This document shows, one piece after another, positions 24,089 to 30,512 of a stretch of DNA of 64,000 nucleotides. The notes beneath the pieces are model-generated. The model did not search any database. It was not told the origin of the DNA and was given only the letters and a program-made list of their open reading frames with translations. Source of the stretch: an uncultured Gammaproteobacteria bacterium (lineage in GTDB: Bacteria > Patescibacteriota > Patescibacteriia > UBA10025 > JAHIVO01); assembly GCA_964628855.1 (NCBI GenBank), contig CAZVMV010000002.1:11442-75441 (forward strand), read 5' to 3'. Within the stretch, counting starts at the first letter, position 1. The number at the start of each line of letters is the position of its first letter. The translations under genes and the position numbers were made by a program.

Positions 24089-25663
24089 ATGCCAGAGTCA
24101 CGCAAGATTAGCCATTTTTTTTATAATCACTGGTATTGGATGAGTTATCTGGTGATATTCATTATCACCTTCGTATTTTTTACGTGGCTGCAGGCACCAG
24201 CGTCTTTTCCTGACCCTGATTCCTTTTACCACGCCAAGATGTCATTGCTCATACCTTCAGAAGGGGTCAGGACAACCTTCCCATGGCTGTCCGCGACAAT
24301 TTTGAAAGATTCATTCATTGATCAGCACTTTTTGTACCATGTCTTCCTGATGCCTTTTACGCATCTCATGAGCCCGATCCAGGGAGTAAAGCTGGCCACG
24401 GTATTTCTGGGGTCTGGGCTGCTAATGCTGTTTTATTGGCTTCTGCGCTCACAAAAAATTAAATTTGCTTTCGGGTTCACGCTGGCATTGTTGGCCACCA
24501 TGCCTTTTGTTTTCCGCATCAACCTAGTGAAAGCGCCCGTTGTCTCCATTATCTTGCTTTTAGTTGGCTTATATCTACTATTTAAGCATCATTACAAGCT
24601 TTTATTTCTTTTGTCGTTTGTTTTTGTGTGGGCGTATGGCGGGTTTATTTTGATAGTGATTTTTTCAGGACTATATGCCTTTGTCTCTGTGGTATACGAT
24701 TGGTTGAGGGCGAAAAAAATAAATGCCTTCTTCATGATAATCACGCACAACCGTGAAGTGCGTCTTTTTATAGTTTCAGCGCTCGGCGTACTGGCCGGTC
24801 TGGTGATCAACCCTTATTTCCCCCATAATATAAATTTTTATTGGCACCAGCTTGTCCAAATCGGAATTATTAATTACCGCTCTGTCATTCCTGTCGGTAA
24901 CGAATGGTACTCTTATTCGTTCTTCGATCTGACCGCCAATACCGCTTTGGTCACGATAATGGTCCTCGCGTCGGTACTTGCCTCAATTATTAAATTCCGG
25001 GCTCCATCAAAAAAAACCATTACTTTATTACTCATCTACATTTTATTTTTTGCCTTTACCATAAAATCACGCCGCTACGTGGAGTACTATGTGCCATTTG
25101 GGATTTTGTTTTCCGCTTTTGCCTTGGGGCAGTATTTTTACCACCTGGACTGGCACAAATTGTGGTCCAGGGGCGTTGATATGTATTTGCGTCACCGTAT
25201 TGTCGGCACAATTTTAATAGTTTATTTTCTGACGACCATCCCGACGGTAATTATCAAGGATATCCATAGCACCCACCATGATTTTACCTCCGGTATTTCA
25301 ATTAGTAGGTTTTCCGGGGCTAGTGAGTGGTTATCGGCTAATTCGCAGCACGGGGACATTGTATTCCATTCAAGCTGGGACGAATTCCCAATTCTATTTT
25401 TCCATAACAGCAAGGATTATTATATCGCCGGGCTGGATCCGACATTCACTTATAAATACAGCCAGACTCTTTATCGCCAAATGGTCGACATTACAGTCGG
25501 CAACCAGACAACTGATTTACATAAGATGATCGGCCAAGATTTTCACGCCAAGTATGTCTTAGTTGAGGGGAATCATTTCAAAATGGATTCAAATATCCGG
25601 AACAGTACCGGTTTTACTGAAGTTTATAAGGACGCTGATGCCACAATATATTATGTACAATAA
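24089..25663 (+). CDS. Large polytopic membrane protein, GT-C-fold glycosyltransferase-like (family not resolved)
   Basis: 524 aa with more than 10 predicted TM segments and DPDSFYH after TM1. A C-terminal ~130-aa soluble part contains DIVFHSSWDEFPILF. The architecture resembles ArnT/PMT/STT3-type enzymes. Confidence 0.45.
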   Translation: MPESRKISHFFYNHWYWMSYLVIFIITFVFFTWLQAPASFPDPDSFYHAKMSLLIPSEGVRTTFPWLSATILKDSFIDQHFLYHVFLMPFTHLMSPIQGVKLATVFLGSGLLMLFYWLLRSQKIKFAFGFTLALLATMPFVFRINLVKAPVVSIILLLVGLYLLFKHHYKLLFLLSFVFVWAYGGFILIVIFSGLYAFVSVVYDWLRAKKINAFFMIITHNREVRLFIVSALGVLAGLVINPYFPHNINFYWHQLVQIGIINYRSVIPVGNEWYSYSFFDLTANTALVTIMVLASVLASIIKFRAPSKKTITLLLIYILFFAFTIKSRRYVEYYVPFGILFSAFALGQYFYHLDWHKLWSRGVDMYLRHRIVGTILIVYFLTTIPTVIIKDIHSTHHDFTSGISISRFSGASEWLSANSQHGDIVFHSSWDEFPILFFHNSKDYYIAGLDPTFTYKYSQTLYRQMVDITVGNQTTDLHKMIGQDFHAKYVLVEGNHFKMDSNIRNSTGFTEVYKDADATIYYVQ

Positions 25664-25666
25664 TAA

Positions 25667-28547: not shown

Positions 28548-30512
28548 TTAAAGCGCGATAGTCGGACCGATAATTTCTTTTTTTGTAAAAATTTTTTTTG
28601 CTGACCGCCAACCATCTAAGTCAAGGTACCCGTCCACGTCCACCACCGAAATCGTAAATGGGTTGCTGTCCCGGCTTATGGAAAGCTGGAAGTTTGTTGA
28701 AATAATTTTATCCGATGGCCAGTTGAACATCGGGGCGAGGCCGTATCCAAAAGGCATGATTTCATCTGTAAGGATTTTTCCGGATCGGTCACGTTCGACG
28801 AAGTTGATGTCGTAATCTTTTTCTGTTGGTTTGGATAATTTCCAATATAGCGTGAGGTCAATCGTATCCTCATCAGCCTTGGCTCCCGAGCTGGCAGTTT
28901 TTTTCCAGCCGATTAAGGTAATATCCTGGTCTATTTTTTGGTCTGCCATCAGAACATTGGATGGCAAGTCATCCAGGTATTCAAAAAGTTTTTTATGGGA
29001 GTCTCCTTGCTTGGAAAATGTAACGATAGAATGGTTAACAGATTCCAGGCTCAACCCGAAGGAGGATATGTAATCATTTATCCTTCCCGCGCCAAGGCGG
29101 TAATCAGCCTTATCGCTGTTTTGCAGCTGGAAGGTGATAAAATCAGAAGCGTCCATGACTATCCGTTCCACGCCAGGCGGGAGCCTATAAACCTGATTTG
29201 AATACTGTTTTTTGGCCATGAAGGCGTAATTAAGGGAATACAAATGTTCGCGGTTGGATAATGGCGTTAAAAAATTATATCCGGCAACAACATGTTCGGA
29301 TGAAGGAGTGCTGGCCACGACCTCCTTTTCCTGGTTAATTTTTATGGTATCGGCATAGGGCGTAAAAATCGAGTGAACGAGAGTGGCGATTGGGCTAATG
29401 ATGACAAATGCGTATAGCAGGGCGCAACCAGTAATAACGCCGTACAGCCACCGATAGCGGAAAATAAAGGATTTTTTTCGATCAGCGTCTGGTGTATTTT
29501 GGTAGAGGTGAGCCAAGCCGTAAATTGCGGCAACAAATAAAAACGGCAGGACTAAGGCGGGGTAATGCGTTTCAAGAATAACGGATGGACTAAAGCCAGA
29601 TAAAAATAGTTGAATCATTATTATAGTGGTCAGGAGGAGTGTTTTTGGTTTTATTAAGGGCAAGCCTGCGAGCGGAAGCAACAAACCAAAAGCCAAAAGT
29701 AAATTTTTAGGATTAATAATATGGAGGATTATCAGCCAGGGTTTGGTCATGATAGTTTTAGCTGCAGCGCTGAACGTATCACCGAGCCATGGGTACATCG
29801 CTAAAAATTTGTATGAACCGTATTGATTGAAAAAACCCGTAAGCTGCATTGAGCCGATGAACCAAATGCCACCGGCGATGATCGGCGACAATACCCATTT
29901 CAACGGGCGGCGTTCGGCCAGCGCCAAAATTCCAAACATGATTATCACCAGTGAAACGTCCTCGCGCACCGTGAGCGATATTAATGAAAAAATTACGAAG
30001 GGTAGGAATTTTCTTTCTAAAAAATAATAGTATGTAAAAAGCAGCAGCGGCATGGCGAACGGAAGCATGTGAAATTCAAAAAATGCCATGTTCCAGAGGA
30101 ACGGGTTTATTAGCCAGGCAGCAGATACCAACAGAGAAAGTTGGGGGGAAAGAAATTTTTTCGCGATGAGGTACAGAGGCCAGGCGGCGATGACGACTGC
30201 CAGTATTTGCAAAATCAATAAAGTAATCGGTGATTGGAACATTGCGTAAACCGGCGCCAATAAAATGATGAAAAGTTCGAAGTGGTCACCCAAGTAAGAG
30301 TGGGGATGGATGCTGAATTCAAAAAACCGGCCGTGAACAGTATTATAAAAAACCTGGTTATAAATTCCCAGGTCCATGGCGTTGTAACCAAGTCTGTTGT
30401 ACTTAGATAATATGCCTAATAACATAGCGGCGGCTACGAGTACGATCATGCCCCACAACAGAATATGTTGGTTTTTCGATATCCAGGCCATCATTTTTTC
30501 ATTTCTTGGCAT
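28548..30512 (-). CDS. DUF2079-family polytopic membrane protein with large C-terminal extracytoplasmic domain
   Basis: YNAMDLGIYNQVFYNTVHGRFFEFSIHPHSYLGDHFELFIILLAPVY is the DUF2079 signature as I remember it. I prefer ATG 30512 (MPRNEKMMAW...), because the track start 30560 lies inside a terminator hairpin. Confidence 0.6.
   Translation of the reverse strand: MPRNEKMMAWISKNQHILLWGMIVLVAAAMLLGILSKYNRLGYNAMDLGIYNQVFYNTVHGRFFEFSIHPHSYLGDHFELFIILLAPVYAMFQSPITLLILQILAVVIAAWPLYLIAKKFLSPQLSLLVSAAWLINPFLWNMAFFEFHMLPFAMPLLLFTYYYFLERKFLPFVIFSLISLTVREDVSLVIIMFGILALAERRPLKWVLSPIIAGGIWFIGSMQLTGFFNQYGSYKFLAMYPWLGDTFSAAAKTIMTKPWLIILHIINPKNLLLAFGLLLPLAGLPLIKPKTLLLTTIIMIQLFLSGFSPSVILETHYPALVLPFLFVAAIYGLAHLYQNTPDADRKKSFIFRYRWLYGVITGCALLYAFVIISPIATLVHSIFTPYADTIKINQEKEVVASTPSSEHVVAGYNFLTPLSNREHLYSLNYAFMAKKQYSNQVYRLPPGVERIVMDASDFITFQLQNSDKADYRLGAGRINDYISSFGLSLESVNHSIVTFSKQGDSHKKLFEYLDDLPSNVLMADQKIDQDITLIGWKKTASSGAKADEDTIDLTLYWKLSKPTEKDYDINFVERDRSGKILTDEIMPFGYGLAPMFNWPSDKIISTNFQLSISRDSNPFTISVVDVDGYLDLDGWRSAKKIFTKKEIIGPTIAL

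Follow-up and report, generated by a model that had tools for sequence, protein, structure and literature searches.

A conserved and internally variable locus of predicted GT-C-type membrane proteins, probably for surface glycosylation, in a clade of Patescibacteria

For this analysis, we used a 64,000-nucleotide (nt) stretch of contig CAZVMV010000002.1 (hereafter, the window) from an uncultured bacterium placed in the Patescibacteriota. The analysis was centered on four consecutive genes for large polytopic membrane proteins, named P1, P2, P3, and P4, which were taken from the open reading frame (ORF) list of the window. Protein lengths are given in amino acids (aa).

24089-25663, plus strand: P1, 524 aa
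25667-26923, plus strand: P2, 418 aa
26928-28547, plus strand: P3, 539 aa
28548-30512, minus strand: P4, 654 aa; 670 aa (28548-30560) if counted from the first ATG
28545-28550, strand not applicable: TAATTA, the convergent stop-to-stop junction of P3 and P4

The gaps are 3 nt between P1 and P2, 4 nt between P2 and P3, and 0 nt between P3 and P4. A first-pass annotation had described four genes with gaps of 3-4 nt, the TAATTA junction, and the peptide strings DPDSFYH, DIVFHSSWDEFPILF, and SDVIFSAYEIGNFIPAYSGRIVWIGHG, all of which were found again in the ORF list, the sequence, or the translations. Our interpretation is that the four genes encode GT-C-fold glycosyltransferases and probably form the constant part of a surface-glycosylation locus that is conserved in a Patescibacteria clade but varies internally. 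Predicted structures for P1 and P3, and profile comparisons for P2 and, indirectly through P3, for P4, indicate that all four proteins are of the GT-C type, three of them STT3-like (P1, P3, and P4) and one of the PIG-M/GT87 kind (P2).

Direct scans of P1 and P3 resulted in zero Pfam or NCBIfam matches, and the Pfam STT3 family (PF02516) gave none at E <= 1. Likewise, phmmer searches of both proteins and a search with the P1-family profile returned only noise against the sequences of the Protein Data Bank (PDB). AlphaFold (AF2) models were built from 40-sequence alignments and submitted to Foldseek against the PDB. The predicted local distance difference test (pLDDT) and the predicted template modelling score (pTM) were 91.7 and 0.89 for P1, and 94.7 and 0.93 for P3. 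Both models had yeast STT3 (8age_A) as the top match, with E 1.3e-10 and TMq 0.68 for P1 and E 7.2e-11 for P3; in the P1 search, human STT3, AglB, PglB, DPY19, and ArnT followed. The top matches, about 20 for P1 and P3, were nearly all catalytic subunits of oligosaccharyltransferases (OSTs), aligned over the full length with E 1e-10 to 1e-6 and TMq 0.50-0.68, and AglB and PglB appeared at E 1e-8 to 1e-6. DPY19 was interleaved with the OSTs, and ArnT, AftA/AftD, ALG9/ALG12, Emb, and PMT ranked below. The OSTs are the closest structures to both models, which show the same architecture of a 13-transmembrane (TM) domain followed by a C-terminal domain. The first-pass suggestion that P1 and P3 are GT-C-like is supported by these matches, in which STT3, AglB, and PglB come first.

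Homologues of P1 and P3 are many, full length, and derived from Patescibacteria metagenome-assembled genomes; they are named 'hypothetical protein', except for one 'ArnT family glycosyltransferase'. P1 is the most conserved of the four members. A profile of its homologues confronted against 1.84 billion representatives resulted in 3416 clusters at 50% identity. The motifs that carry the argument are located as follows.

24212-24232, plus strand: P1 loop-1 motif D42-P-D44-S-F-Y-H48, directly after TM1, invariant in 40 homologues
24902-24907, plus strand: P1 E272-W273, in the loop between the TM helices at residues 246-285, in 150/150 representatives
25367-25390, plus strand: P1 H427-S-S-W430-D431-E-F-P434, at the WWDYG-equivalent position of the C-terminal domain
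27087-27089, plus strand: P3 invariant loop-1 Asp D54 (TPGDTN)
28260-28277, plus strand: P3 S445-A-Y-E-I-G450, the degenerate WWDYG equivalent
25823-25834, plus strand: P2 loop-1 acidic motif D53-D54-F-E56, with D53 invariant in the family alignment
30354-30374, minus strand: P4 loop-1 motif D47-L-G-I-Y-N-Q53

Conservation in P1 was counted over 150 diverse cluster representatives. The residues D44, H48, H84, R143, K148, E272-W273, R329, E332, W430, and G448-L-D450 are essentially invariant; D44 is kept in 146 representatives and H48 in 145. The D42/D44 site, directly past TM1, is where GT-C enzymes have their catalytic Asp. By position, the loop harboring E272-W273 may be equated with external loop 5 (EL5) of the OSTs, which carries conserved catalytic residues (PMC10859629). 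The pair is invariant in P1, and P3 has Q291 there, an equivalence given by position only. In the C-terminal domain, W430 is present in 146/150 representatives, P434 in 141/150, and D431 in 119/150 (79%). The P1 model has a strand at residues 424-427 and a helix at 430-439, with the WWDYG-like site at the strand-to-helix junction, as in the P3 model. W430-D431 correspond to the second W and to the D of WWDYG through the P1/P3 alignment (that is, transitively), and an OST-like C-terminal signature, W-L-x-x-N ... V-x-x-[S]-W-D, was seen directly against STT3 and AglB fragments.

The P1 and P3 families aligned with a probability of 96.9% in hhalign (E 1.6e-10, 397 columns), which indicates that the two proteins are distant paralogues. 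The loop-1 D54 of P3 is one of only four invariant columns among 40 homologues that reach down to 22% identity; five of these 40 match PF20176 (DUF6541). When the P3 family profile was confronted against the PDB sequences, only the C-terminal domains of AglB-S2 and STT3 were matched. In this weak alignment, SAYEIGNFIP is set under SWWDYGNWIL of 3vu0 (AfAglB-S2, E 0.04) and 2lgz (yeast STT3, E 0.14), and the preceding W-L-x-x-N helix falls under Y-L-K-A / W-L-R-M-N. The S-A-Y-E-I-G string is not conserved among P3 homologues. The resemblance to WWDYG weakly suggested in the first pass holds as a degenerate equivalent, seen in P3 by its profile and in P1 through P3. The OSTs have a second acidic motif (DxD, DxE, or DxH) in the TM3-TM4 loop, and P3 has D170...E175 in this region, placed by sequence and not by structure, with E175 nearly invariant. 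P3 also occurs fused to a polyprenyl-phosphate-sugar-synthase-like GT2 domain, in a 783-aa protein of one genome (L005/L038, 11598-13949, plus strand) and in the 790-aa protein P0190.

P2 scored below the threshold of Pfam GT87 (17.6 bits, cut-off 25); four of its homologues carry PF09594 (GT87) and two carry PF05007 (PIG-M). The P2 family profile matched the solved GPI mannosyltransferase 1 (23gx_B) with E 3.3e-10 over residues 30-323, nearly the whole length, and D54-x-E56 is aligned under the D-I-D of that enzyme. P2 is a probable polyprenyl-phosphate-mannose-dependent mannosyltransferase. It shares this profile match and the aligned loop-1 acidic motif with GPI mannosyltransferase I (PIG-M/Gpi14, GT50) and PimE-type GT87 enzymes, whereas P2 itself stays below the GT87 cut-off and the locus has no context of a GPI or phosphatidylinositol mannoside (PIM) pathway.

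P4 is a clear member of DUF2079 (PF09852), with 190.4 bits against a cut-off of 28.2 (E 8.6e-56, residues 54-470 of the 670-aa ORF), and the label given to it in the first pass was correct. DUF2079 has no described function, and our literature search gave no paper on it. The family profile, made from 37 genes of related loci, matched nothing among the PDB sequences. In hhalign, the DUF2079 family aligned with the P3 family with a probability of 93.2% (E 3e-7, 391 columns), in an alignment that runs from TM1 to where the C-terminal domain begins; the probability was only 28% with the P1 family, and no relation to the P2 family was found. D47, L48, and I50 are invariant in the 37 homologues, and the loop-1 motif of P4 is aligned with the region around D54 in P3. 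P4 is predicted to have a GT-C-type TM domain followed by about 265 aa of C-terminal extracytoplasmic sequence. DUF2079 is thus shown to be homologous by profile to the STT3-like P3 family, and in this clade its gene follows the VirB2-like pilin arrays on their 3' side.

Conserved loop-1 acids are present in all four proteins: D42/D44 in P1, D53/D54/E56 in P2, D54 in P3, and D47 in P4. Topology was read from the AF2 secondary structure and from homology to the OSTs, with the N-terminus inside; a sliding-window hydropathy was qualitative only, with badly merged segments. By homology to the 13-TM OST topology, the acidic motifs in the first loop after TM1 would be extracytoplasmic, in agreement with the outer face expected in the first pass.

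To describe the relatives, the GTDB species representatives were scanned, resulting in 241 P1 matches, 80 of which were analyzed. The ORFs were classed by family hidden Markov models, and individual homologues were looked up. Locus counts refer to the 58 species loci in which the sequence continues for 8 kb or more past P1. The backbone begins with GlgA-GlgA-(GH15)-RuvC-YebC and continues with a bifunctional phosphoglucose/phosphomannose isomerase (PGI/PMI), P1, the island, and P3, the last four reading forward. P4 converges on P3 and is preceded, on its own strand, by two to nine T4SS_pilin genes, an SBP gene, and GalU. The members that flank P1 and P4 in the window are given below.

22899-23966, plus strand: PGI/PMI (PF10432 and NCBIfam PGI/PMI models)
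30606-33474, minus strand: three VirB2-like T4SS_pilin genes (118, 136, and 647 aa; PF18895), upstream of P4 on the same strand
31073-31483, minus strand: the second pilin, which carries an NAT sequon
31531-33474, minus strand: the 647-aa pilin fusion, with the VirB2-like T4SS_pilin domain at residues 60-123

P3 was found in 41 of the 58 loci, pilins in 36, P4 in 35, and P2 in 28, and 31 loci have an immediate convergent P3/P4 pair. In 29 of the 35 loci with P4, this gene comes immediately after the pilin array and shares its strand. Of 63 related loci, 39 have PGI/PMI as the immediate and co-directional upstream neighbor of P1. An overlap of 4-70 nt between the 3' ends of P3 and P4 was counted in 30 of 41 related loci, and in three others the ends lie no more than 1 nt apart, so the stop-to-stop contact is a family trait. 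Since the same gene order recurs in dozens of species-representative genomes, the arrangement is not due to chance. Thus, the four genes, whose co-occurrence had been left to be checked, are syntenic and not scattered in related genomes.

The interval between P1 and P4, here called the island, varies in length and content and holds almost solely glycosylation genes. Across the related loci, the 69 island ORFs other than P1-P4 include 28 GT2, 9 PMT_2, 8 GT87, 4 ALG3-like, 6 methyltransferases, and 2 GT4; MptA_B-family GT-Cs were additionally seen in the individual look-ups. In one relative, the island has a Wzx-like flippase, two GT4s, and an acetyltransferase. The GT2s of the islands are short proteins. 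Their best models, none of which reached its curated (equivalog) cut-off, are AglJ, ArnC, PgfS, dolichyl-phosphate hexose transferase, and PpgS. The window has the minimal form P1-P2-P3-P4, as do the closest relatives L006-L008, and the locus with its enzyme set spans 6-15 kb. In a separate observation, P1 is duplicated in tandem in L064 and L065 (about 8460-11500), and the pilin genes follow directly, without P3 or P4. The records of L012, L016, L029, L037, and others with a Patescibacteria-type locus are titled 'uncultured Gammaproteobacteria bacterium' and are probably mislabelled.

We propose the following mechanism. Small GT2s would charge a polyprenyl-phosphate carrier with a sugar in the cytoplasm; such GT2s lie within the locus in relatives and must be encoded elsewhere in the source genome. 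Because no DPM-type GT2 is present in the window, the carrier-charging enzyme must lie outside it. The lipid-sugar would then be flipped across the membrane; no flippase was identified for this step, and GtrA was not seen among the ORFs scanned (130 aa and longer). At the outer face of the cytoplasmic membrane, the GT-Cs would transfer the sugar from the polyprenyl-phosphate carrier to an extracytoplasmic acceptor. P1 may start glycosylation on secreted or membrane proteins, and P2, P3, and P4 may extend or diversify the glycan. From the GT2s of related islands and the GT2::P3 fusions, we infer that the donors are polyprenyl-monophosphate sugars; mannose, as suggested by the family membership of P2 and many island genes, would be one of them. 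The window itself carries a DedA/UptA-like carrier transporter, GalU, and the PGI/PMI upstream of P1.

A protein acceptor is favored because the enzymes structurally closest to P1 and P3 modify peptides, because P1 has retained W-D where, in OSTs, the hydroxy-amino-acid of the acceptor peptide is bound, and because the neighbors encode secreted VirB2-like pilins, one with a Thr/Asn-rich mature N-terminus and one rich in Cys. The VirB2-like pilins and the Cys/Thr-rich pilin fusion are the most obvious candidate acceptors. The second pilin and its homologues in L006-L010 have a variable Thr/Asn/Ser-rich mature N-terminus (e.g., GDVGTNATNTGTSTGT) before a conserved PSLPNPLG, and this stretch is absent from more distant relatives; another example of the mature N-terminus of a pilin-like protein is GDVGTNATNTGTSTGTPSLPNPLG. 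The extension of the 647-aa fusion is 517 aa long and contains six N-x-S/T sequons; Cys makes up 12.4% of it and Ser+Thr 19%, and its ten CC doublets are spaced about 40-45 aa apart. Large pilin fusions homologous to this protein occur at the same position in close relatives. An enrichment of N-x-S/T in the pilins was considered as support for N-glycosylation and rejected, as it was marginal (0.52-0.75 sequons per 100 aa against a background of 0.45). A published description of VirB2-like pilin arrays in the Candidate Phyla Radiation (CPR) does not mention glycosylation (bioRxiv 10.1101/2025.01.22.634366). Such arrays are reportedly essential to the epibiotic growth of a cultivated CPR bacterium.

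In architecture, the closest known systems are the GT66 OSTs (STT3/AglB/PglB), the type of enzyme responsible for protein N-glycosylation in eukaryotes and archaea. P1 and P3 share with them a domain of about 13 TM helices, an extracytoplasmic alpha/beta domain at the C-terminus, the loop-1 Asp, and the helix-strand-helix signature W-L-x-x-N ... [S]-W-D/[A]-Y-E at the WWDYG region; P1 also has an invariant Glu in a loop that may correspond to EL5. In contrast, they have no Pfam STT3 match and no conserved WWD, P1 has R143/K148 in the presumed region of the second acidic motif, both are shorter (524-539 aa versus about 640-870 aa), and their context points to monophosphate-sugar donors and not to a diphosphate-linked oligosaccharide. 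Due to the absence of a true WWD motif, P1 and P3 were not placed in GT66; they share the OST architecture but form separate families. The DPY19 C-mannosyltransferases, which are GT-Cs with a dolichyl-phosphate-mannose donor and a peptide acceptor, matched P1 and P3 structurally with E 3e-7 to 6e-9, although no sequence-level relation was detected. They show that an STT3-like fold can pair a monophosphate-sugar donor with a peptide acceptor.

In logic, the closest systems are those of Gram-positive bacteria that combine a GtrB/CsbB-type GT2, a flippase, and a GT-C, in which the GT2 makes the polyprenyl-phosphate sugar and the GT-C transfers it outside to proteins or polymers. GtrB/PgtC2 and PgfS/PgfM1 glycosylate Ser/Thr-rich regions of streptococcal membrane proteins (PMC12041528; reviewed in PMC8035078). 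The likeness consists of island GT2s that match PgfS, ArnC, and AglJ, and of neighboring pilins with Thr-rich N-termini. However, here up to four to eight GT-Cs of several families are clustered, and they are STT3-like, PIG-M-like, or DUF2079 instead of YfhO/PMT_2-type. Of the three Gtr components, the window island lacks the GtrB-like GT2, which is present in relatives, and a GtrA-like flippase was not found among ORFs of at least 130 aa.

Several results weigh against a glycosylation locus with protein acceptors as we describe it. STT3 proteins strictly conserve a WWD motif, by which the +2 Ser/Thr is bound (PMC10859629). Its place is taken by S-W-D in P1 (S-S-W-D-E-F) and by A-Y-E in P3 (S-A-Y-E-I-G), with D431 conserved in only 79% of the P1 family. 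P1 has no acid in the region that would correspond to the second acidic motif, and the invariant R143 and K148 stand there instead. The P1-P4 island of the window has no GT2, and the nearest one (43365) is not DPM/GtrB-like. The first pass had pointed to the adjacency of galU and a pilin-like protein; this adjacency is present, but its functional weight is low because the genes belong to a longer conserved backbone that also holds clearly unrelated genes (RuvC, YebC, glycogen genes, SBP, and GalU). What the data show are the fold, the family relationships, the conserved motifs, the synteny, and the island content; the donor type, the order of action, and the acceptor are inferred.

The same backbone synteny favors the idea that the locus builds a lipoglycan or a wall-linked glycopolymer, mannan-like as in actinobacterial lipomannan, lipoarabinomannan, or arabinogalactan, with a coincidental pilin neighborhood and proteins that are not glycosylated. 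We regard this as a serious alternative, although the less likely one. P2 and many island genes are of the GT87, MptA_B, ALG3, and PIG-M types, whose characterized members elongate mannans or glycolipids; PGI/PMI is the conserved upstream neighbor, and AftA and AftD are significant structural matches. On the other hand, the best structures for P1 and P3 are the protein-modifying STT3, AglB, PglB, and DPY19, rather than Emb, Aft, or PimE, W-D is retained in P1 at the WWD position that binds the peptide, and no PimA/PimB-like genes for lipid-anchor or primer synthesis were seen in the islands. The full-length OST matches and the profile match of the C-terminal domain to those of AglB-S2 and STT3 could also mean that P1, alone or with P3, is a true OST, which transfers an oligosaccharide en bloc from polyprenyl diphosphate onto Asn (or Ser/Thr) as a GT66-like enzyme outside Campylobacterota and Desulfobacterota. 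The island with the Wzx-like flippase, two GT4s, and an acetyltransferase is what the assembly of a lipid-linked oligosaccharide predicts, and the Cys-rich fusion has its six N-x-S/T sequons and the second pilin its NAT. We consider a true en bloc OST very improbable because the strict WWD and any Pfam STT3 match at E <= 1 are absent and no initiating phosphoglycosyltransferase was seen in any island. Moreover, the islands are dominated by GT2s of the monophosphate-sugar-synthase type, to one of which P3 is found fused, and the sequon density of the pilins is only slightly above background.

As regional gene order is kept far past the four genes, P1-P4 might instead be functionally unrelated membrane proteins (transporters or structural proteins), adjacent only by frozen gene order in small CPR genomes. 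This is hardly credible, as all four are GT-C by structure or profile, and the insertions between P1 and P4 in relatives are glycosylation machinery, with GT2::P3 fusions in addition. The surface-glycosylation locus with a GT-C core is the reading we retain as probable. A bolder extension of it seems doubtful to us: P1 would found a large family of STT3-like protein glycosyltransferases that spans the Patescibacteria and has no model so far, and this family would be a deep bacterial branch, sister to the catalytic subunit of the OSTs. Together with P3 and DUF2079, P1 would glycosylate the tandem pilin arrays, and the variable GT-C/GT2 island would generate glycan diversity that tunes host recognition or the evasion of immunity or phages at the CPR cell surface.

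Patescibacteria are viewed as episymbionts with a minimal metabolism and a biology dominated by the cell surface, and, to our knowledge, almost nothing is known about CPR surface glycoconjugates. Our literature search on Patescibacteria with oligosaccharyltransferase or GT-C found nothing relevant. The GT-C superfamily itself is known, and the novelty lies in GT-C families of STT3-like build within a conserved modular island. A large clade, with at least 241 species representatives and, for P1 alone, more than 3400 clusters at 50% identity, appears to invest 6-15 kb by the replication origin in modular extracytoplasmic glycosyltransferases. The P1 and P3 families, for which neither Pfam nor NCBIfam has a model, are the bacterial proteins that, apart from PglB, most resemble the STT3 fold, and DUF2079 gains a predicted fold-level assignment. 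These genes are concrete and testable candidates for CPR protein glycosylation beside VirB2-like pilin arrays implicated in epibiosis.

The other genes of the window that were annotated are the following.

3120-7581: yidC, dnaA, and dnaN
12913-21567, minus strand: alpha-glucan/glycogen block with a GalT-like gene, two GT5 synthases, an APH-family kinase, two GH57, and one GH15
38246-38866, minus strand: DedA-family protein; best match UptA (undecaprenyl-phosphate transporter), 180 bits, cut-off 250
39835-41355, minus strand: fused MFS/spermidine-synthase membrane protein (NF037959, 274 bits)
42350-43114, minus strand, and 42477-43205, plus strand: long overlapping ORFs on opposite strands, with no family assigned
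57976-59769, minus strand: 597-aa protein with a NAGPA phosphodiester-glycosidase domain and FG-GAP repeats

The presence of yidC, dnaA, and dnaN places the window at the chromosomal replication origin, with the glycosylation island and the pilin array about 20 kb from dnaA. The alpha-glucan/glycogen block is kept upstream of RuvC-YebC in most related genomes. The GT2 at 43365 was tried as the carrier-charging enzyme and rejected, as its best models were EpsD and MftF, and ArnC and PpgS reached only 1e-4 to 1e-7. From the surface-glycosylation context drawn in the first pass, the general idea was retained, whereas this EpsD/MftF-like GT2 is not a polyprenyl-phosphate sugar synthase. The 597-aa NAGPA/FG-GAP protein may act on surface glycans. 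The translation of 42350-43114 on the minus strand is rich in Ser and Arg and looks non-coding.

Three hairpins were found at the gene ends of P3, P4, and the pilin array.

28466-28481, minus strand: terminator-like hairpin within the 3' end of the opposing gene, followed by the T-run AGTTTTTTTT
28671-28689, plus strand: terminator-like hairpin within the 3' end of the opposing gene
30549-30575: perfect palindromic GC-rich hairpin of 12 bp (9 GC), CCCCCGCACCA...TGGTGCGGGGG, between the last pilin gene and P4

No terminator had been noted at the convergent pair, which is true of the junction itself, whereas terminator-like hairpins lie inside the opposing 3' ends; the terminators of P3 and P4 may each be located within the other gene. 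The hairpin at 30549-30575 has T-rich tails on both strands and is probably a (leaky) terminator behind the pilin genes. Because it covers the upstream ATG of the 670-aa ORF, the start of P4 was taken as 30512.

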